Below the pieces are notes generated by a model, which saw only the letters and a program-made list of their open reading frames with translations, did not search any database and was not told the DNA's origin. 64,000 bases of DNA, from assembly GCA_965242725.1 (NCBI GenBank), contig CBDESZ010000022.1:1-64000 (forward strand), read 5' to 3'. A program made the position numbers and the translations under genes. Below are positions 14,655 through 63,769 of the stretch, in pieces. Origin of the DNA: Alkalispirochaeta sp. (GTDB taxonomy: Bacteria; Spirochaetota; Spirochaetia; DSM-27196; Alkalispirochaetaceae). Position 1 is the stretch's first letter, and each line of letters starts with the position of its first letter.

Positions 14655-15326
14655 TCACTCCTCAACCAGGCCAAGGGATGCGAACACGTTGTCCAGGCCA
14701 CTGAGTTCCACGTTTGGAATCCCTTCCTTGAGGCGTTTGCGTTTGTCCTCCTCTTTACGGACACGAGTCTCTGCAGCCGCCAACACCTCGTCGATTCGGT
14801 CCCGCGGTATCGCGACCACCCCGTCGTCGTTACCAAGAACGAGGTCCCCCGGATGAACGACGACATCTCCGATCAGAATCGGATGGTTTACCAGGCCCAG
14901 GCATTGTTTGCTTGTACCCCGGACGCACGTCCCGCGGCAGAATACAGGGAATCCCATTTCAATGATTTCGGAGCTGTCCCGTATACTGCCGTCAATGACG
15001 AGACCGGCGATCCCTCGGGCGGAAGCGGAAGTCGCCATCAATTCGCCCCAGTATCCGGCTTCCGGAAATCCATCGGTGGCAGCCACTATCACATCTCCGG
15101 GACGGGCGATTTGAATTGCCTTATGCAGCATCAAATTGTCTTTTGGATGACAAAGAACGGTCAGTGCCGGTCCCACTACCGACATACCCTGAGCTATGGG
15201 TTTAATATTTGAACGAATGGCACCGATTCGTCCGGCAGCTTCATGAACGGTAGCTGCGTCCAATTTCGCAAACCTTTTGACAGTCGCAAGGTCCGGTCGC
15301 GGAAACTCTCTGTGGACATGGACCAT
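14655..15326 (-). CDS. RraA-family HMG/CHA aldolase (LigK/GalC-like)
   Basis: ATVHEA, GPALTV...DNLMLH, WGELM, IDGSIRD, PGDLVLGNDDGVV; ATG 15326 fits the AAGGAG spacing. Confidence 0.88.
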   Translation of the reverse strand: MVHVHREFPRPDLATVKRFAKLDAATVHEAAGRIGAIRSNIKPIAQGMSVVGPALTVLCHPKDNLMLHKAIQIARPGDVIVAATDGFPEAGYWGELMATSASARGIAGLVIDGSIRDSSEIIEMGFPVFCRGTCVRGTSKQCLGLVNHPILIGDVVVHPGDLVLGNDDGVVAIPRDRIDEVLAAAETRVRKEEDKRKRLKEGIPNVELSGLDNVFASLGLVEE

Positions 15327-54217: not shown

Positions 54218-54706
54218 TTACCAGTCAAGCTGTACAGTAAATCCGGCAAATACCTGGACGGGCTGACTGGAAAACTGCGGTTTGGGATAAAAATCGAAAC
54301 CGGGGGCAACTTCGACAAAAAACTCAAGGAAGTCGTCCAGGAGGAGAACGCTCAGCGCAAAGGGAACGCGGGCACCGCCGTCAAACTGGACATCTCCGTC
54401 GCCGTCGCGCCCCTCCGGATAGAGCTTGCCGTAAAGTCCGATACCGAAAGAGCCGTGGAGCACTTCCACCAACTGGCGATTGTCGATAAGGCGCAGATCG
54501 CCGGCGAGAAACACGTACTGCTTCCCCTCGGTCAGGTCGTATCCGATCTTCACATCCATCGGCGACGGCCGATATACGAGCACACCATTGGGCGTCCCCG
54601 CCGCCAGTCCGAGACGACCCGGCCTGTTGCCGACCTGTGCGAAAAGCGGCGTTGCAACGGCAACTGCCAACAATAGGGTGACCAATATGAACTGTCGTTT
54701 CATCAT
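54218..54706 (-). CDS. Small outer-membrane beta-barrel protein (DUF3996-like)
   Basis: Signal peptide, alternating-residue strands (GARVPFALS, LEFFVEVAPG), C-terminal Trp; GGAGG before ATG. Confidence 0.7.
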   Translation of the reverse strand: MMKRQFILVTLLLAVAVATPLFAQVGNRPGRLGLAAGTPNGVLVYRPSPMDVKIGYDLTEGKQYVFLAGDLRLIDNRQLVEVLHGSFGIGLYGKLYPEGRDGDGDVQFDGGARVPFALSVLLLDDFLEFFVEVAPGFDFYPKPQFSSQPVQVFAGFTVQLDW

Positions 54707-54734
54707 ATCCTCCGTGGCCAGTATACGATATTTC

Positions 54735-54763
54735 TTGTCCGCTGGCCCATTGCCTGATATAGT
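54735..54763 (+). promoter_or_regulatory. Sigma70 promoter of the PilZ-fusion operon
   Basis: TTGTCC-17 nt-TATAGT with TGn extension, 12 nt before ATG 54776. Confidence 0.6.
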
Positions 54764-54775
54764 CATTTCTCAATT

Positions 54776-57700
54776 ATGGCCGAAAAACGTCAACACCCGC
54801 GTGTGGTGCATCGGGACGTGGTCAGGTTTGAGGGAAACGGTGCGACCATTGAGGGGTTGTCCGTTGATATCAGTCGGGCGGGGATTCAGGTTGAAGTCGC
54901 CGATCCCCATTCCCTGAACAGTGTTGAAACGATCCGGTTTTCACTTCCCAATACGAAGTCGGAACTGGAGCTCCCCGTACGTATTACCCGCCGGGAAAGC
55001 GCTGCGGACGGGAACGGTCAGCATAGACTCGGCTGTGAATTCCTCCGCAAATCAGATCAGCATATTCGTCTCATCGAAAACTACATCCGCGACACCGTCG
55101 CCCTTCCCGATCAGGATGGTCGCCAGATTCCCCGCATTACCACGTCGATTCCGGTGGAGTGGGATGACGGTCGCTCCCGGGGGACGATTGAAAACATCTC
55201 ACTCACGGGGGTGCGCATTTCCACGGAACGTGCCGTGGAGGTCCACAGGGATCTGCATCTCACATTCACACTGCCCGAACGAGGGGGTGCGACAAAGGCA
55301 TCGGCCCGCGTCGTCTATACCATACGGGAGGAATCGAGCCGGAACGTGCGGTTCGGCGCAACCTTTGTGGACCTTCCCCAGGTGCATCGTGCGCGCATCA
55401 ATAATTTCATTGAACAGACGACTGCGGTGACCTCACTCAAGTCGGTATGGGCGCGCCTCAACACCGACGGCGGGCGGGGATACACCCTGGAGGGGCATGA
55501 ACTCGCCGTCATCCTGCAGCGGGTGCCCGGGATCGTCTTCCATATCCTCATGGAGGGTGACCTCTCCATACATACGGCCACGGCGTCATATGACGGCGGG
55601 GAGCGGGAAATGCGGTTTACCCTGGTTCCCCAATCGGGTAGTTCCCCGTCCCAACCGGGGCAACGCCTCTTCGTCACCTTTACCGCCCTGGGGAGCAACT
55701 ACTATTTCGCCGCTCCCATAACCGGGATTTCCCGCCCCGACGCGACCGCCGCCGGCTCCGGGACCGTCGAAAATCGTGACGGAGTGTCGCAGGTCGTCAC
55801 CCGATGGCCGCAACACATCCATCGTTCCGACGACCGTGCCGATCACCGCTCGCCGGTGGAGAGCGACCAGCGGCTTTCGTTACGGCCCGAAGGAGGTATG
55901 GCACTTCTTGAGGGTCTCCTCATTGATGTGAGCCACGGGGGGTTTCTCTGCTCCCTGACCGTATCCGCCTCTGAAACGGGGCAGCTGCAGCCCGATACCG
56001 CGGTTGCAATTGAAACGGACGGCCCGGTGCCGCTCCAAAGCTACGGACGAATACGGCATCGGGAAATCAGGGACGACACCGGGGAAGGTGCCGATACCCG
56101 TGTGGTCTACGTCGGCGTGGAAACGGGGGTACGCCACGGTACCTTCGTACGTAGAGAGATATCCACCGATGAATGGGAACGACGCCTTGAACGATTAAGG
56201 AACGAGGACGACGGGGAAACGCCGGACGTTGAATCGCGCCACATTGAGACGCGGCGCATTTCCTATCGCAACAACGAAGGACACCGTATCGTCGCCCTCA
56301 TGAACCGCGTCGGAGACGACCGGTCGGGACGTCCGACGGTCGTCATCATTCCCCCCGCCTTCGGAAAGAAGAAGGAAAACCCGGCGCCGCTGGCGCTGAC
56401 CTTGTGTACAACCTTTCTCCGTGCAGGTGCGCCGCTCGTCGTTATTCGGTACGACGGTATCAACCGTCCCGGTGAGAGCCACAACGAAGGGGGTGGAGCA
56501 CTGCGGGGATACGAGATGATCCACTACCGGCCGACCCAGGGAGTACGGGACATATCGACTACGCTGGATTTCGTATACGGCAACGGCGAGTTTATTCCAC
56601 AACGGGTCATTCTCATCACCAGCAGTATGTCCTCGGTGGACGCACGAAAACTCCTCGTCCGGGAAGGTCGCGTAGACGGCTGGATCAGCCTCATGGGAGT
56701 CCCCGCCGGCAGAACCACCATGATGAACGTCCTCGCCGGAACGGACATCATTGCAAATTACCGCCTCAGCGTCCCCAACGGGGTACGGGGCATGCTGGGT
56801 CACCTGGTCGACATGGATGTGGTTGCCCGGGATCTCGTGGAGGAGCATTACGCCTTCGTTGCCGATGCGCGTCACGATATGGCTCTCATTGACATTCCCG
56901 TCACGTGGATCGTCGGCCGGCATGACCACTGGGTGGACAGGGAAGAAGTTGAAGACATCATGTCCGTCGAAGCCGGCGCCCCCCGGGAGGTGGTCCACAT
57001 ACCCACCGGCCACAACCTCAGAAACAGTGACGACGCAGCCGAGGCATTCCGCATCATCGCCCAGTACTGCGCCGATGCGGCGGGGCTGTCGGTGGAAGCG
57101 GCGGCACCTCCCCGGGAGGCGGTCCTCCAGACACTTTCCCGGGAACGTGAGGGACTCTACAAACCGATTGACACCGACACCGTCACCGCCTACTGGCACT
57201 CCTACCTTCTCGGCGGCGACGGAACGAGTGAAGGCTACGATTTCTACCGGAATCTGGCGGAGTTCCGCGAGTTCATCGCTCAGGAAGCGGAGATGCTGGA
57301 CCCGCAACCTGGTGATCACATTGCGGATATGGGGTGTGGAACGGGTATTCTCACAGAGGCCCTCCTGCGCAGGCTCGTCGACGACGGGCCACGTAACGAT
57401 GACAGACCTCCCTCCGGAATCGTCGCGGTGGATATCATTCCGGACGCCCTCGTCCGGGCGGAGAAGAAATGCCGGCTCATCCTCGGAGAAAACGCACCGG
57501 CGCCTGACATATCACTTGAATTCCGGACGGCAAATCTCGAGCCGGACCGATATGCCCCGGTGCGGGACTTTGTATTGAACCGACAGTTGTCGCCGGCCTT
57601 TCTCAGGGGCCGCATCGAGGGGCTGTACGACAGCGTGGTGGATCTCTGGGACAGGGAAGACTCTGCGGGCGACATTCTCCGCGGAGACGATATCGCCCTG

Positions 57701-58270
57701 CCCGACGATTTTCCCCGTGCCGATGAGGCACGGGAGTTCCGCACCGCCGCCCGCGTTGCCACAGGCCACATGGACGCAGCGGACGCATGCTATTCGATTT
57801 TCTCCTTCGGAGACGCGCCGCGGCAGAGGGCACAACGAGAGGAGCCGCGACGGTACGACCGTCTCGCGGCGAGCCTCTTCATTTCCTATATTCTGAACCC
57901 CGATTACCTCCTCTGGGAGTTTCATCGCATGCTGCGCCCGGGCGGGGTGATCCTCGTCTCTTCCATGCGTCCCGACAGCGACGTTTCAAAGATCTTTACC
58001 ACCTACATTGAAGAGGTGGACTCGGGACGGGCCGATGCGACGCACCGCGGAGCGGCCGACGCGATGCTCAATGAGGCGGCGGCACTCTTTGAACTGGAAG
58101 AGGAGGGCCATTTCCGCTTTTACACCGCCGAAGAATTGTCGGCCATGTTGATCGCCGCCGGTTTCACGGATGTCCGGGTGCGACCTTCCCTTGGAACGCC
58201 CCCGCAGGCGTACATCGCGACGGGTATCGCCGTCGAAAATCCCCCCGAGCCATGGAGGAACTATGCATGA
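54776..58270 (+). CDS. Multidomain protein: three PilZ domains, LuxD-like alpha/beta-hydrolase, class I SAM methyltransferase
   Basis: RQHPR..DISRAG, RQIPR..NISLTG, RADHR..DVSHGG; RYDGINRPGES, TSSMS, DHWVDREEV, GHNL; ADMGCGTG and RMLRPGG. Confidence 0.85.
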   Translation: MAEKRQHPRVVHRDVVRFEGNGATIEGLSVDISRAGIQVEVADPHSLNSVETIRFSLPNTKSELELPVRITRRESAADGNGQHRLGCEFLRKSDQHIRLIENYIRDTVALPDQDGRQIPRITTSIPVEWDDGRSRGTIENISLTGVRISTERAVEVHRDLHLTFTLPERGGATKASARVVYTIREESSRNVRFGATFVDLPQVHRARINNFIEQTTAVTSLKSVWARLNTDGGRGYTLEGHELAVILQRVPGIVFHILMEGDLSIHTATASYDGGEREMRFTLVPQSGSSPSQPGQRLFVTFTALGSNYYFAAPITGISRPDATAAGSGTVENRDGVSQVVTRWPQHIHRSDDRADHRSPVESDQRLSLRPEGGMALLEGLLIDVSHGGFLCSLTVSASETGQLQPDTAVAIETDGPVPLQSYGRIRHREIRDDTGEGADTRVVYVGVETGVRHGTFVRREISTDEWERRLERLRNEDDGETPDVESRHIETRRISYRNNEGHRIVALMNRVGDDRSGRPTVVIIPPAFGKKKENPAPLALTLCTTFLRAGAPLVVIRYDGINRPGESHNEGGGALRGYEMIHYRPTQGVRDISTTLDFVYGNGEFIPQRVILITSSMSSVDARKLLVREGRVDGWISLMGVPAGRTTMMNVLAGTDIIANYRLSVPNGVRGMLGHLVDMDVVARDLVEEHYAFVADARHDMALIDIPVTWIVGRHDHWVDREEVEDIMSVEAGAPREVVHIPTGHNLRNSDDAAEAFRIIAQYCADAAGLSVEAAAPPREAVLQTLSREREGLYKPIDTDTVTAYWHSYLLGGDGTSEGYDFYRNLAEFREFIAQEAEMLDPQPGDHIADMGCGTGILTEALLRRLVDDGPRNDDRPPSGIVAVDIIPDALVRAEKKCRLILGENAPAPDISLEFRTANLEPDRYAPVRDFVLNRQLSPAFLRGRIEGLYDSVVDLWDREDSAGDILRGDDIALPDDFPRADEAREFRTAARVATGHMDAADACYSIFSFGDAPRQRAQREEPRRYDRLAASLFISYILNPDYLLWEFHRMLRPGGVILVSSMRPDSDVSKIFTTYIEEVDSGRADATHRGAADAMLNEAAALFELEEEGHFRFYTAEELSAMLIAAGFTDVRVRPSLGTPPQAYIATGIAVENPPEPWRNYA

Positions 58271-59690
58271 CCTCATAGCGACGATAGACGGTGCGCTTGC
58301 GACGTGGGGGCCTCACCCCGTCCTCATTGAAGTCGACGGGAACGGGACCATCACTCCGATCCCCTCATCGGAGCTCCTCCGACGGATCGACGGGGCGGAA
58401 CACTCCCTCCGGCGGTTCGGAGTTCAACGGTACGACGTGGTCGCCCTCTTTCTGGAGAATTCAGCGGATTACATCGCCGTCCTCATCGCCCTGTGGCGGC
58501 TGGGAGCGATACCGGTCTTTGCGAAACTGGAGTACCGCCGCAATGAACTGACCACCATTTTTCGCGACATCGATCCCGACGGGATAATCACGGAAGAGCA
58601 CTATCTGCCCCACCTGAAACAGTTCTATCCCGGACGGGGAATCATCGTTCGCAGACCCGACGGACTCGCTGCGGCGCAGCCCGTTACCCGGCACCACGTT
58701 TCGGAGGAGACGGTATCGGGAATAGCATCGATCAACTGCACCTATCGCGGCTGCGGCGAACTCCTGGGAAGCATGGCGACGGAGCGGCAGTATCTCCACG
58801 GGGCGAAGGTCCTGCAGGACGGTCTGCAGGGGAACGCCGGTGAATCGATGCTCTACCCCCTTCCACTGAGCCACATTTTCACCTTGATCGGCTGCCTTCT
58901 GGTACCCCTCATGTACGGAATGACAGGTGTAATCACCCGAACCGTCCATCCCAGAGTTCTCTTTGACACGATACATAAACTGGAGATCCGCCATATGACG
59001 GCGGTACCGGAGATCTATCGTCTCCTTGCACGCTCCTTTCGGTCGAAGCGGCCGCCGGAATCGCTGAAGACATTTGTTTCCGGCGGAAGCACCCTGGAAG
59101 CGGGAGAGTGCCGCAATTTCAACGATATCTTTGAGGTCGAAGTCCTCCACGGTTTCGGCCTGACCGAATTTACGCCGGTGAGCCGCAATGTACGGAATGA
59201 GAGCCGGTGCGGGACGGTAGGCCCTGTCTGCGACGGCGTGGAGGTATCCATCGCCAATCCCGACGACGAGGGGAAAGGGGAAATACTCGTCAAAAGCGAC
59301 GCGCTGGGATTGGGGTACTACAATCGCCCTCAGGCGACACGACAAGCCTTCCGGGACGGCTGGTTTCACACCGGTGACCGGGGATTTTTTGACGGGGACC
59401 ACCTCGTGTTCGATCGGGAGATAAAGGCGACAGGTAAAATCAACGGCGTCATGGTGGACCGGGAAGAGATCCGTCGGACGATCCTTGCGGCGACGCCCGC
59501 GCTCGACGCGGAGGTCCGACTGCAGGGAAATTCCATTTTGGCACTTCTGGAATTACCGGAAGACGCCGATATTGAGGGGGAACAAAAAAGACTTCATAAA
59601 GTGTTACCCCACCAGCTGGCGGCGTACAAGATTCCCCGTCGTCTGGAGCAGCGGGTCAGACCGGCCGTGGGCGAAAGAGAGGAACCGTGA
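58263..59690 (+). CDS. AMP-binding (acyl-adenylate-forming) enzyme, atypical
   Basis: LPLSHIF, SGGS, GFGLTE, GEILVK, GWFHTGD, YKIPR; P-loop reads CTYRGCGELLG; GGAGG before ATG 58263. Confidence 0.85.
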   Translation: MHDLIATIDGALATWGPHPVLIEVDGNGTITPIPSSELLRRIDGAEHSLRRFGVQRYDVVALFLENSADYIAVLIALWRLGAIPVFAKLEYRRNELTTIFRDIDPDGIITEEHYLPHLKQFYPGRGIIVRRPDGLAAAQPVTRHHVSEETVSGIASINCTYRGCGELLGSMATERQYLHGAKVLQDGLQGNAGESMLYPLPLSHIFTLIGCLLVPLMYGMTGVITRTVHPRVLFDTIHKLEIRHMTAVPEIYRLLARSFRSKRPPESLKTFVSGGSTLEAGECRNFNDIFEVEVLHGFGLTEFTPVSRNVRNESRCGTVGPVCDGVEVSIANPDDEGKGEILVKSDALGLGYYNRPQATRQAFRDGWFHTGDRGFFDGDHLVFDREIKATGKINGVMVDREEIRRTILAATPALDAEVRLQGNSILALLELPEDADIEGEQKRLHKVLPHQLAAYKIPRRLEQRVRPAVGEREEP

Positions 59691-59971
59691 GCGACAGAGA
59701 ACAACCGACGGAGCTGATGAATTCTGCGGCTCTCCGGGACCGACTGGAAATGATCGTTTCCCGCATATCGAGAATCCCCCGGGAAGAGTTTGAAGATGAG
59801 GTGCTCATCCGGGAGGAACTGGGCATCGACAGCCTCATGGCAATGGAAATCACCGCCGCGGTGGAGCGGGAGTTCAGCGTTGAGATCAATGAGGCGGAAA
59901 TGTTTTCAATCCAGGCGGTAGGCGAGTTTGCGCGGTTTGTAGAAGAGCGGTACCGGGAGACCCATGGATAA
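59687..59971 (+). CDS. Acyl carrier protein
   Basis: ELGIDSLMAMEI phosphopantetheine site, acidic, 94 aa, GTGA overlap with upstream stop. Confidence 0.92.
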   Translation: MSDREQPTELMNSAALRDRLEMIVSRISRIPREEFEDEVLIREELGIDSLMAMEITAAVEREFSVEINEAEMFSIQAVGEFARFVEERYRETHG

Positions 59972-61274
59972 GGGACGAATACTGCTCATTTCACCGGGTG
60001 GCGCGTTTCTGAGCCGGAACGAGGAATTTCGGACCTATGTTGAGACGTCCCGGGAGATGAAAACGATCCTTCACTACTGGAACGGTCTGGGTGCGGCTCT
60101 GCCGACGGTGGCGGCCCTCACACCCGAAAACTATTCGGTCACCATTTGCGACGAAAATTACAGCGACATCGACTTTGACTCGCCCGTCGAAATCGTCGGA
60201 CTGACGGGAATGACCCAGCAGGCTTCCCGGGCGTATGAGATCGCCGACGAATTTCGCAGGCGGGGCGTTTATGTAACGATGGGCGGAATGCACGCCACCG
60301 TCCTCCCCGAGGAGGCGCTTGAACACGTCGATTCCGTCTTTGTCGGGGAGGCGGAAAACACATGGCCCCGGTTTCTGTCCGACTACGACAGGGGAGAGCC
60401 TCGCCGTATATATGACCAGAACGATTATCCCGACGTCGACATGACGACGATTCCGCTGCCCCGGTACGACCTGGTAGCCCACAATGACTACCCCGTGGTG
60501 TGGGTTCAGGCGACACGGGGGTGCCCCCTTGACTGCGAGTTCTGTGCGGCCACACGGGTCTATGGTCGACGTTACCGCCACAAGGAGGTTTCCCAGGTCG
60601 CAACCGAGGTGCGTACGGTGCGATCGCTCTGGAAACACGCCCAGGTCGGATTTGCCGACGACAACATGTTCGTCAATCGACCGTGGGTACGAAAGCTTCT
60701 TGACGAATTTGAGACGATTCCGTTCACCTGGTACGCCCAGAGCGATATTTCAATTTCGGAGCATCCCGACCTCCTGCAACGGCTGCATGAAACGGGTCTG
60801 CGCATTCTCTTTGTCGGTTTTGAGAGCGTAAACCACGACAATCTCAAGGGGATAAACCGCAATGAGTGGAAAGCGCGCCGGCTGGAGCGATATCCTGACG
60901 CGATCGCGGCGATTCAGGGAGCGGGTATCGGCGTCTACGGCTCCTTCATCGTCGGAATGGAATCGGATGACCACGATGTGTTTTCCCAGATTGCGGACTT
61001 CGCAAACACCAATAATCTGATGGGTACGCAGATAACGATCCTCACGCCCTTTCCCGGCAGCCTCCTGCGAACCCGCATGGAGCGGGAGGGACGGATTGCG
61101 TCCAGCGACTGGAGTCTGTATACCGCGTGGAACAGCGTCATACACCATCCCCGCCTATCCGCAGACGAGCTCGAGTCGGGTCTGTTGAAAATCTATCGGT
61201 CGGTCTATGCGGAAGAACAACTACGCGCTCGAGCGGCGCATTTCAAGACCATTTTCCGGAAACTCGCGGGGTAA
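59964..61274 (+). CDS. Cobalamin-binding-domain radical SAM enzyme
   Basis: GGMHAT..PEE, GEAE, RGCPLDCEFC (CxxxCxxC), DDN, VGFES, TPFPGS. Confidence 0.92.
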   Translation: MDKGRILLISPGGAFLSRNEEFRTYVETSREMKTILHYWNGLGAALPTVAALTPENYSVTICDENYSDIDFDSPVEIVGLTGMTQQASRAYEIADEFRRRGVYVTMGGMHATVLPEEALEHVDSVFVGEAENTWPRFLSDYDRGEPRRIYDQNDYPDVDMTTIPLPRYDLVAHNDYPVVWVQATRGCPLDCEFCAATRVYGRRYRHKEVSQVATEVRTVRSLWKHAQVGFADDNMFVNRPWVRKLLDEFETIPFTWYAQSDISISEHPDLLQRLHETGLRILFVGFESVNHDNLKGINRNEWKARRLERYPDAIAAIQGAGIGVYGSFIVGMESDDHDVFSQIADFANTNNLMGTQITILTPFPGSLLRTRMEREGRIASSDWSLYTAWNSVIHHPRLSADELESGLLKIYRSVYAEEQLRARAAHFKTIFRKLAG

Positions 61275-61284
61275 CAACGACGAG

Positions 61285-63769
61285 ATGCAGCCGGGATACA
61301 TAGAGGAACAAAAAGAACGGGCCCTTCGGAACAGCCGTATCGCGGCCGTCTTTGCCGCGGTTGCAATTATGGTGTTCGCCCTTCTCGACATGGTGGTCTA
61401 TCCAGACTTTATGTACCGCTTTCTTATTCTCCGCATTTCAGTCGTCGGCGTCAGCGCGATCCTCTACGCCATTACCTATATTCCCCGTGCCGCCGATTTC
61501 GGACGGGAGATCGGTATGGTTCAGTACGTCATTACGGCTCTTTCAGTTGTCGTGATGATACATATGGCGGACGGGTACCTGAGTACCTATTACGCGGGGT
61601 TGAACATCATTTTCATCGTTTTTCTCGCCATTCTTCCCCTGGACCACATCAGGACAACCGTCATTTGCTCGGTCATCTACGCGGCGTATCTCATTCCCAT
61701 CCTCCTGCACGGCCAAATCGACGATTGGGCGATTTTTGTCAACAACAACGCCTTCCTCCTGGGAACAATCCTGCTCGCCGTCGTAAGCTCCTATTTTTCA
61801 AATCGCCTGCGCCGGAAGGAGTATATCGCCCGATACAACCTCGCCCGGGCAAATGACGAGCTGAAACAGATGGACCTGCTGAAATCCCAGTTTTTCGCCA
61901 ATATCAGCCATGAGGTGCGGACGCCGCTCACGTCGATCATCGGCCCCGTTCAAAGTCTCTACCAGGGGGAGGCCGGGGAGGTAAACGATATACAGCGGCA
62001 GCTCCTTTCCCAGGTCTATCGGAACGGCGTCAGACTCCTCGACATGATCAATCAAATGCTCGATTTTGCCCGGTTTGATGCAAATAAGATGCAGGTGCGT
62101 CTGTCCGAGGTCGATCTGGATACGGTCATTCAGGACATCATCTCCGTCTTTCTTGAAGTCGCTGCACGAAAATCACTGACGATCACCTATGAACTGGAGA
62201 CGGATATTTTTCCGGTCTATCTGGACAAGGAAAAAGCGGACCGGATTATCACCAATCTGCTGAGAAACGCCATAAAATTCACCGACCGCGGCGGAATCAC
62301 CATACGTGCGGGCAGCAACGGCGATACCGTCTATATCGAAATAGAAGACACGGGAATCGGCATACCGGGAGATCAGGTTTCGACGATTTTTGAACGGTTT
62401 CAGCAGGTCGACAGCTCGAGCACGCGAAGGTACGAAGGAACGGGCCTCGGATTGACGATCGTCAAGGAAGCGGTGGAGATCCAGAGGGGCTCGGTGGACG
62501 TCCGGAGCGTATACGGGGAAGGAACGACCTTTACCGTAACCTTCCCCTGCGATCTCCATGAACAGATGCCAAACGCCGTCGGTGCACCTGTTGCCAAGGA
62601 ACGGCGACGGGGGGACCGCCGAAAAGGAAACGGCGCCTATACCGGACCGGAACGGCGACGCGGACCGCGGCGACAGCTGGACTTTGCACGTGTGGACATC
62701 GCCGATATGGTCATGATCGATTCGGGGCTCTACGGGTTCGATGAAGAGGATGAGGAGTCGATCGCCGACCGGGACGATGACCGGGAGCGGACAATCGTTC
62801 TCTACGTCGAGGATAACGTCGACCTTCGCAGGTACGTGTATACAATGCTCTCCCGATCGGGGTATCGCGTCGTTACCGCCGCGGACGGCAGAGACGGGTG
62901 GGACAAATTGCAGGACCTCCACCCGGATGTCGTCGTTTCCGACGTCATGATGCCCCGCCTGGACGGCTACGACCTCATGAAACGGATGAGAAGCAGCGAC
63001 GAGCTGTGCACCATTCCGATCATCCTCACCACGGCCAAGTCGGAAACAGAGGAACGGATCAAGGGTCTGGAACACGGTGCGGATGATTACCTTGCCAAAC
63101 CGATAAACATCAGGGAACTTGACGCCCGTATTCGCAATCTCATAACCCGCAGGCTCTTTCAGGAAGCGGTGGCAAAAGCGGAAATGCTGGAACGGCGAAT
63201 GCAGGACATCACCCTGGGATTCTCCCGTTCCCTGGATCTGCGGGATCCCTACACGGCAAATCACTCAAAGGATGTCCTCTTTTTTGGTACGATTATCGCC
63301 GATGAACTGGGATATACCGTAGACGAGACGTTCCGTGACGCGCTGCTCCTTCACGATATCGGGAAAATCGGAATCCCCGACCGTATCCTTCTCAAGGAAG
63401 GGCCTCTCAATGATGACGAGTGGACGTTAATGAAACGACACGCCGAGTTCGGTGCCCAATTGCTGGCGGAAATTTGAATCATTCAGGGATGTCAGTGAAA
63501 TCGTCCTCGCCCATCAGGAACGGTTCGACGGGAGCGGATATCCCCGGGGCCTGAAAAACGGGGATATCCCCTTTATTGCCCGCATTATCGCCGTTGCCGA
63601 CGCATGGCACGCGATGACTGAAGATCGTCCCTACCGCAGGGCGCTGGATGTCTCCGAAGCCATTTGTGAATTGACCCGTGGCAGGGGCAGCCATTTTGAC
63701 CCTGCGGTGGTTGATGCATTTATTGCGGCTCTCTGCCGTCACCAATTGATCGATCTATCAATGTGCTGA
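61285..63769 (+). CDS. Hybrid sensor: multi-TM histidine kinase, receiver and HD-GYP domain, frameshift near 63472
   Basis: About six TM helices, SHEVRTPL, NAIKFT, DTGIGI, GTGLGL; VEDN, SDVMMP, LTTAK, KP; LLHDIGK, then HQERFDGSGYP and DRPYR in the next frame. Confidence 0.9.

Follow-up and report, generated by a model that had tools for sequence, protein, structure and literature searches.

The Phc system (phcBSRQ) is described from Ralstonia, Cupriavidus and Paraburkholderia (PMC11960443, PMC6989110, PMC7694676), and its kinase PhcS senses methyl 3-hydroxymyristate, the product of PhcB (PMC11960443). The Rpf system of Xanthomonas, which uses the diffusible signal factor (DSF), is described with a thioesterase-type synthase, a ligase-fold neighbour, a membrane kinase-REC protein acting on an HD-GYP protein, and post-translational control of the synthase RpfF through binding by RpfC (PMC7912708); control of HD-GYP activity by REC is described, as is autoinduction acting after translation in the DSF system (bioRxiv 2021.11.05.467447, PMC7912708). 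LuxD, the myristoyl-acyl carrier protein (ACP) thioesterase/acyl transferase of V. harveyi (structure 1THT, family PF02273), accepts acyl-ACP or acyl-coenzyme A (CoA) and passes the acid to LuxE; its Ser114 is the acylated residue within the catalytic triad (PMC6279958). Specificity groups are described for agr, where the hypervariable region runs from the 3' part of agrB through agrD into the 5' end of agrC (PMC3673130), and in Bacillus, where pherotypes are linked to comQXP polymorphism (PMC4408185). We analyzed a 64,000-nucleotide stretch of Alkalispirochaeta sp. DNA (assembly GCA_965242725.1, contig CBDESZ010000022.1, positions 1 to 64,000 of the forward strand; hereafter the window), in which one gene fuses PilZ domains, a LuxD-like hydrolase and an S-adenosylmethionine (SAM) methyltransferase and heads a five-gene cassette that includes a membrane receptor. 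The fusion probably carries out the last two steps, release and methylation, in the synthesis of a diffusible fatty-acyl methyl-ester signal of the quorum-sensing type and is predicted to be switched by cyclic diguanosine monophosphate (c-di-GMP).

A preliminary description of this DNA, made from its letters, had proposed a c-di-GMP-gated release-and-methylate enzyme. The anatomy behind that proposal held up, with conserved PilZ motifs, catalytic triad and SAM motif and with c-di-GMP turnover genes adjoining, while the reading was incomplete, as the fusion gene heads a cassette that encodes both a synthase and a receptor. This position points to a signal and not to a generic biosynthetic step. 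The claimed uninterrupted frame was confirmed as a single open reading frame of 1164 codons without a stop. The parts of the fusion are as follows.

54776-58270, forward strand: PilZ-PilZ-PilZN-PilZ / LuxD-like hydrolase / class I methyltransferase fusion, 1164 aa
54782-55090, forward strand: PilZ 1 (R5, R9, D31, S33, G36), from Pfam and motif conservation
55115-55414, forward strand: PilZ 2 (R116, R120, N140, S142, G145), from Pfam and motif conservation
55469-56131, forward strand: PilZN-like barrel and PilZ 3 (R354, R358, D384, S386, G389), matching PP4397, a unit retained in shorter relatives
56240-57085, forward strand: LuxD-fold alpha/beta hydrolase (S617 at 56624, D717 at 56924, H746 at 57011)
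57176-58228, forward strand: class I SAM methyltransferase (DxGCGTG at 57326-57346; helical insertion at about 57548-57841)

The remaining cassette genes follow, and the ends of all five genes overlap or abut.

58263-59690, forward strand: atypical AMP-binding (ANL) enzyme, 475 aa, its start overlapping the fusion stop
59687-59971, forward strand: dedicated ACP, 94 aa, Ser49 in DSL
59964-61274, forward strand: B12-binding radical SAM enzyme, 436 aa, CxxxCxxC at 60522
61285-61839, forward strand: receptor, membrane sensing domain, resembling MASE8 and with homology to a PhcS-type sensor
61840-63769, forward strand: remainder of the receptor, with histidine kinase (H-box at 61903), REC (62932) and HD-GYP (63349 onward)

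By its sequence, the cassette has a receptor like that of Phc and an output like that of Rpf; it is assigned to neither system, because PhcB homology of the synthase, phcR/phcQ and an RpfF-type synthase were all lacking. Shared with Phc are a PhcS-type sensing domain, a SAM methyltransferase gene ahead of a membrane kinase gene, and synthase and sensor types that co-vary. Unlike Phc, the cassette has a methyltransferase that is not PhcB and that forms one polypeptide with PilZ domains and a LuxD-fold hydrolase. Genes for a ligase, an ACP and a radical SAM enzyme come in addition, and the output is a fused REC-HD-GYP (a separate REC-HD-GYP in loci such as L026) instead of PhcR/PhcQ/PhcA. The likeness to Rpf extends to a thioesterase-type synthase, a ligase-fold neighbour, a membrane kinase-REC to HD-GYP path and, as predicted here, post-translational control of the synthase. 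The hydrolase has a LuxD fold, whereas RpfF has a crotonase fold. Kinase, REC and HD-GYP lie mostly on one chain, the ligase looks unable to adenylate, and control would be exerted by c-di-GMP on PilZ and not by RpfC binding RpfF. With LuxD itself the hydrolase shares the fold, the Ser and Asp positions and a conserved His, but it is only about 20% identical and fused, and it scored 20.9 bits against a cut-off of 420 on the NCBIfam LuxD equivalog model, far from LuxD proper; luxC, luxE and luxAB were not present in the cassette. As in the agr and comQXP specificity groups, the variable block consists of signal-determining genes plus the 5' part of the receptor gene between conserved flanks (PMC3673130, PMC4408185); here, instead of a peptide, the signal would be a lipid that a radical SAM enzyme modifies on an ACP, and the systems have no homology.

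The three PilZ motif pairs claimed earlier were all found: RQHPR (residues 5-9) with DISRAG (31-36), RQIPR (116-120) with NISLTG (140-145), and RADHR (354-358) with DVSHGG (384-389). Each conforms to the c-di-GMP-receptor pattern RxxxR plus [D/N]x[S/A]xxG, and Pfam placed PilZ in three stretches (E 1.4e-29), so that the three barrels are likely canonical PilZ domains and predicted c-di-GMP receptors. Beyond the pairs first noted, an extra barrel was found at residues ~232-350, ahead of PilZ 3, and the two together matched PP4397 (2GJG and 3KYF, E 6e-5 and 8e-5), which we take to be a YcgR-type PilZN-PilZ receptor. In the hydrolase, the motifs said to parallel LuxD were located at residues 558-568 (RYDGINRPGES), 615-619 (TSSMS), 717-725 (DHWVDREEV) and 745-748 (GHNL). 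The Pfam family Acyl_transf_2 (LuxD, PF02273) scored 26.8 bits against a cut-off of 20.3, and 1THT was the best sequence match of this part in the PDB (E 8.1e-5). Counted from the alignment with V. harveyi LuxD, S617 falls on S114 and D717 on D211; D211 and H241 are presumably the remaining members of the LuxD triad. An AlphaFold2 model of the fusion built from 101 sequences had a mean predicted local distance difference test score (pLDDT) of 86.6 and a predicted TM-score (pTM) of 0.84 across the 1164 residues. The structural comparison that the preliminary description had called for was run on the whole model, and 1THT was the top Foldseek match (E 5e-13, TM 0.82 on the target), with many esterases ranking below it.

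The claimed methyltransferase motif was found as DMGCGTG at residues 851-857, within a Pfam methyltransferase match at residues 837-1133, and the long insertion is helical in the model. Modelled alone, this part gave a class I fold plus the helical insertion. The insertion (57548-57841) covers ~100-130 aa with a conserved LRxRIEGL, and most relatives have a longer one than the window; it occurs in the long forms and some mid-size relatives and is missing from most 820-aa forms. It was considered as an ACP and, on its sequence, rejected, as no DSL-type serine motif was seen. Contigs were compared across sequencing runs, all from one sample that is possibly the source of the window; a 1-base deletion at 56351 was present in one contig of one run and absent from the two other runs covering that base.

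A whole-protein search gave 124 matches, and the names among the 120 listed were solely Spirochaetota or unassigned bacteria. Since 102 of these 120 homologues were at least 1100 aa long, the fusion is not an assembly accident. From the 102 long homologues, 101 were aligned (P0002 was excluded). Complete motif pairs were present in 91/101 for PilZ 1 (the other 10 being gapped there), 100/101 for PilZ 2 and 97/101 for PilZ 3; the barrels are the most divergent regions of the fusion, yet both ligand motifs are kept in all three. The Ser-Asp-His triad was intact in 100 of the 101 spirochaete homologues, the last having Cys, and the SAM motifs were equally stable (DxGxGxG 101/101; D886, the acidic position past strand 2, 100/101). 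A hydrolase search returned 452 representatives at 50% clustering. In a distant set of 105 sequences (104 long, more distant ones picked from 150 listed of the 452, plus the query), the triad was present in all 105 and PilZ 3 in 80, and PilZ 1, PilZ 2 and the insertion were mostly missing. A short-form query gave 381 matches, two with Myxococcota names, and the Atlas shows similar clusters in Myxococcota and Nitrospirota, which we treat as leads only. The family core, as read from these alignments, is hydrolase plus methyltransferase, with 0 to 3 PilZ modules. A full fusion match was found in 8 of 401 genomes of the phylum, the fusion's own and seven of one genus, and none in the plasmids and viral contigs searched. 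No description of fusion or cassette was found in the literature searched, a collection thin in subscription papers. The fusion family is real, conserved and previously uncharacterized.

Conservation of the cassette was assessed in 76 loci (7 in named genomes, 3 regions, and 66 taken from among the 80 best of 129 metagenome matches), which formed 67 clusters; only sufficiently long loci were counted, and the sample is biased to close relatives. The ligase was present in 51/54, the ACP in 41/46, the radical SAM gene in 29/39, the sensor in 36/39 and HD-GYP in 28/31. The fusion adjoins c-di-GMP turnover genes in both contexts, HD-GYP in 28 of 31 long-enough loci and GGDEF genes in the other 3. 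Among the 401 phylum genomes, the 8 with the full fusion were the same 8 that had a sensor match of at least 167 bits.

The sensing domain of the window matched MASE8 (PF20968) weakly, at 14 bits against a cut-off of 26.2; 17 of 31 members reached E<=1 (best 1.6e-5), and its Atlas neighbours were MASE8, 6, 7 and 11. The H-box was conserved in 31/31 full-length sensors and HD[IV]GK in 27/31, and three receptors had a kinase-REC-kinase form with HD-GYP on a separate gene. In these loci (L026:7219-10971, L029 and L034), sensor-kinase-REC-kinase is followed by a separate REC-HD-GYP gene. The receptor was considered LvrA-like beyond the kinase core, which was rejected because 0/31 sensing domains matched LvrA. 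The receptor gene of the window carries a frameshift near 63470, missing from both covering contig sets (same sample) and from relatives, which is likely an assembly error.

Across the phylum, the sensor profile matched in 63/401 genomes and in two classes, at least 167 bits in the fusion genomes and lower elsewhere; in the window's own genome only 2 ORFs matched. Regions around lower-class sensors were examined in 14 genomes, chosen mostly where matches clustered, and in 13 of them, the own genome included, a PhcB-like methyltransferase of 460-490 aa adjoins the sensor. A plasmid search with that methyltransferase led to an operon of Paraburkholderia graminis that encodes a methyltransferase (468 aa), a kinase and two receivers. 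Its fourth gene, WP_114158450.1, appears as a PhcQ homologue in PMC6989110 Fig. S1, and its first gene fits the length of PhcB (464-468 aa, PMC7694676) and has Arg at position 22, a conserved site in the same figure. The kinase, in the phcS position, scored 67.9 bits on the sensor profile; the PhcS-type assignment of the cassette domain was made through this P. graminis kinase and not Ralstonia PhcS. The cassette would appear, on sequence, to pair the receptor type of Phc with a different synthase. A PilZ domain at the N terminus common to PhcB-like proteins and the fusion was rejected (profile probability <1%), with one member having a weak Pfam PilZ match. A second module with this sensor family, located in the own genome (G000:C32, locus L126:6317-10019), combines genes for a small HATPase-like protein, a SiaC/STAS-like protein and a PhcB-like methyltransferase with a sensor-SpoIIE phosphatase fusion; it recurs in most of the 14 genomes, at times multicopy. 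On a Pseudanabaena plasmid (NC_019690.1, L135:16631-19250), a short PhcB-like methyltransferase faces a kinase with the same sensor (51 bits) and a receiver, and a stand-alone sensor-domain protein lies 10 kb away.

Distances between 32 cassettes were compared by partial rank correlation with 300 permutations. Sensor distances tracked those of the radical SAM enzyme (r 0.38; 0.64 without 7 loci with divergent kinases; 0.38 with near-duplicates collapsed), and 0/300 permutations were as high, a figure that overstates significance among kin. Sixteen close pairs were then defined by hydrolases at least 75% and kinase cores at least 80% identical, thresholds set after the distance results had been seen. 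Nine of these, from four lineages, were swapped, with identities of 36-50% for ACP, 39-46% for radical SAM and 28-37% for the sensor; seven were unswapped (75-96%, 83-93% and 78-95%, respectively), and none was discordant. In the pair L018/L019, the hydrolase is 95% and the kinase core 92% identical, with radical SAM at 42% and the sensor at 35%. The DNA of this pair is 90% identical into the 3' end of the ligase gene, where it breaks, and identity resumes at 15255, 22 bases before the end of the sensing domain. Homology resumes at the same sensor-kinase junction (within ~25 bases) in L020/L021, L026/L034 and L048/L042. FastTree placed L026 with L036/L037 for radical SAM, sensor and ACP (support 1.00, 1.00, 0.97) and with L029/L034 for hydrolase and kinase (1.00, 1.00); L048 grouped with L019/L020 for the first three (1.00, 0.98, 0.92) and with L042 for the other two (1.00, 0.99). 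Only one of the four swapped lineages clearly shows the ligase tail switching along with the ACP. ACP, radical SAM enzyme and sensing domain are thus exchanged between lineages as one block, while fusion and kinase core stay alike. A recurrent breakpoint inside the receptor gene is predicted by selection for matched signal and sensor.

The ligase departs from 4-coumarate-CoA ligase at sites of the adenylation reaction. Its P-loop reads TYRGxGxxLG without the lysine, the A8 Arg is replaced by an invariant Glu, and K392, the lysine of A8, is likewise invariant. In 44/45 sequences (one was not parsed) the protein ends 8-24 residues past YKxP, before the A10 lysine. The A10 lysine is described as serving adenylation and the A8 lysine thiolation (PMC11253843). 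The P-loop lysine, A8 arginine and A10 lysine of an ATP-dependent acyl-CoA/acyl-ACP ligase are each replaced or absent in the neighbour gene, and we infer that the enzyme retains the thioester half-reaction only. A precedent for an adenylate-forming fold with acyl transfer to ACP is AuaE, an anthranilate-CoA:ACP acyltransferase that takes the acyl group from CoA or acyl-AMP; the likeness is one of description only (PMC10295502). The altered ligase region gave 170 protein matches, and those named among the 120 listed were Spirochaetota.

From the observed domain anatomy, motif conservation, gene order, sensor homology and block exchange, we infer the following route. The atypical ligase would move an acyl chain from CoA (or acyl-AMP) to the cassette ACP without making an adenylate of its own, and the B12 radical SAM enzyme would tailor the ACP-bound chain and so set the dialect. 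Ser617, judging by fold and triad, would take the chain from its thioester and free the acid, whose carboxylate the methyltransferase would methylate by analogy to PhcB. Fusion and ACP do not vary together, so the chain may arrive via CoA. The PhcS-type membrane domain, going by its homology and co-exchange, would sense the product, and His-to-Asp transfer within one polypeptide would control the HD-GYP phosphodiesterase. The change in c-di-GMP would be read by the PilZ domains of the fusion, closing a post-translational feedback loop. We lean slightly to positive feedback, in which the signal lowers c-di-GMP and relieves inhibition, over negative. More tentatively, the parts may form a quorum-sensing circuit in free-living spirochaetes, with autoinduction via c-di-GMP directly on the synthase and with lipid 'pherotypes' written by a swappable radical SAM-ACP pair and read by the co-swapped sensor. 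If true, this would be a new synthase class (LuxD-fold hydrolase plus methyltransferase) in lipid-signal quorum sensing, would give a ligand class to an uncharacterized membrane sensor family, and would mean that a second messenger gates an autoinducer synthase directly rather than via transcription. Natural swapped pairs (e.g. L018 vs L019) could be used as they stand to test cross-talk, and they suggest several new reactions of B12 radical SAM enzymes on acyl-ACP; the ligase next to the fusion may be an acyl shuttle that works without ATP.

One lineage has the fusion without the cassette. In its three loci (L057, L058 and L062), which account for all misses of ligase, sensor and HD-GYP, none of the four partner genes was found in the stretches fetched. 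Asp replaces Ser617 in 3 of 71 scorable loci, exactly these three, whose methyltransferase motifs are worn and PilZ motifs kept. The fusion lies there between two cNMP-GGDEF genes, with a phosphopantetheinyl transferase gene (L057, 5908-12286). Catalysis and cassette appear, from the sequences, to have been lost together, once, and this fusion is a candidate pseudo-enzyme c-di-GMP receptor.

Several observations weigh against the fusion as a c-di-GMP-switched synthase of a methyl-ester signal, whose product, ligand and activity are predictions from sequence and model. The radical SAM gene is missing in 10 of 39 loci, of which 3 are cassette-less and 2 lack upstream sequence; L004, L013, L044, L047 and L053 have none within ~7.5-8 kb on each side (5.4 kb downstream for L044), and this query found no copy of the gene in the genome of L004. 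Tailoring by the radical SAM enzyme is optional. PilZ-less hydrolase-methyltransferase clusters exist (Atlas leads in Verrucomicrobiota and Omnitrophota), so that PilZ is not required for catalysis. Sensor distances do not follow those of hydrolase or methyltransferase (nor ligase; r -0.11 to 0.06), and the swapped genes are adjacent, so that linkage contributes to co-exchange. The methyltransferase is, on profile comparison, not a PhcB orthologue: against 17 PhcB-like proteins, with the P. graminis protein standing in for Ralstonia PhcB, it aligned only in the Rossmann core, over 58 columns for long forms and 123 for short forms. Its fold matches are generic ties that name no substrate or methyl acceptor; 4GEK (Z 19.1, root-mean-square deviation 3.1, 214 residues aligned) was tied with other structures. 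The PhcS-like row in the sensor tree is on a long branch, its position uninformative.

Other explanations were weighed against the same evidence. The product, a modified lipid or small metabolite such as a membrane component or defence compound, could be meant for the cell that makes it, with the receptor monitoring product or precursor in the membrane and no cell-to-cell signalling. Clusters for lipid tailoring, too, typically contain ligase, ACP and B12 radical SAM genes (scores of the cassette proteins to NCBIfam TIGR04072, HpnJ and the like were far below cut-off), and product sensing would likewise make sensor and tailoring enzyme co-vary. We nevertheless consider own use unlikely, given that the sensor family elsewhere pairs with PhcB-like signal synthases, that agr types are described with the same pattern, a block exchanged between lineages and broken within the receptor gene (PMC3673130), and that no exporter or lipid-assembly gene is among the five conserved genes. 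Similarly improbable is a purely structural part for PilZ, as docking or scaffold modules (for the HD-GYP receptor, a cyclase or oligomerization) or with c-di-GMP localizing the enzyme, and catalysis not allosterically gated. The variable PilZ number fits such a part, as does the Asp-nucleophile lineage, which keeps its PilZ motifs beside two cNMP-GGDEF genes though catalysis is likely lost; conservation of both ligand motifs in all three barrels, the most divergent parts of the protein, and the single compact assembly in the model argue for gating.

The cassette could also signal through a different chemistry of the fusion. Its LuxD domain might act upstream, supplying the ligase with acyl chains drawn from fatty-acid synthesis, as LuxD gives acid to LuxE (PMC6279958), or be a transacylase, and the methyltransferase might act on a carbon, hydroxyl or amine, so that the product is no methyl ester. 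The hydrolase remains 76-95% identical while the ACP falls to 36-50%, so the fusion may not dock the cassette ACP, and the fold matches leave the methyl acceptor unspecified. This is quite unlikely in our estimate, because the order of hydrolase and methyltransferase is constant across the wider family, with or without PilZ, as fits consecutive steps, because the ligase is without residues for activating a free acid, and because the homologous receptor type senses methyl esters. Lastly, the fusion could inactivate a signal by hydrolyzing or methylating an outside lipid cue sensed by the receptor, with the ligase recycling the product in the manner of RpfB, described as an acyl-CoA ligase in DSF turnover (PMC7912708). 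The many esterases after LuxD in the Foldseek ranking would suit this; the dedicated ACP and radical SAM tailoring enzyme point to synthesis, the cassette has no other synthase, and the ligase is without adenylation residues, which makes inactivation very improbable.

Upstream of the cassette, a 182-aa exported-looking protein is encoded on the reverse strand at 54218-54766, divergent from the cassette and without a Pfam match; 9 bases separate its start codon from that of the fusion, and it was not seen beside the cassette in L001. A promoter-like site at 54735-54763 was dismissed as evidence, with 4 such sites found against 4.4 expected. Between 44326 and 53360, several upstream genes of the window are apparently split over 2-3 frames; we take them to encode FtsK-like, undecaprenyl phosphatase-like and lytic transglycosylase-like proteins and a tetratricopeptide repeat (TPR) protein. 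The pattern suggests single-base assembly errors like that near 63470. Two weak phylum matches (L082 and L083, two genomes of family f20) were rejected as members of the fusion family, being stand-alone LuxD beside LuxE. This LuxE-LuxD gene pair (L082:40-2175; 3.5 kb seen) is followed by what is presumably a threonine dehydratase relative. At L123:335-2292, on the edge of one lower-class sensor cluster, a single PilZ-like gene accompanies a related B12 radical SAM gene, which scores 358 bits with the cassette profile.

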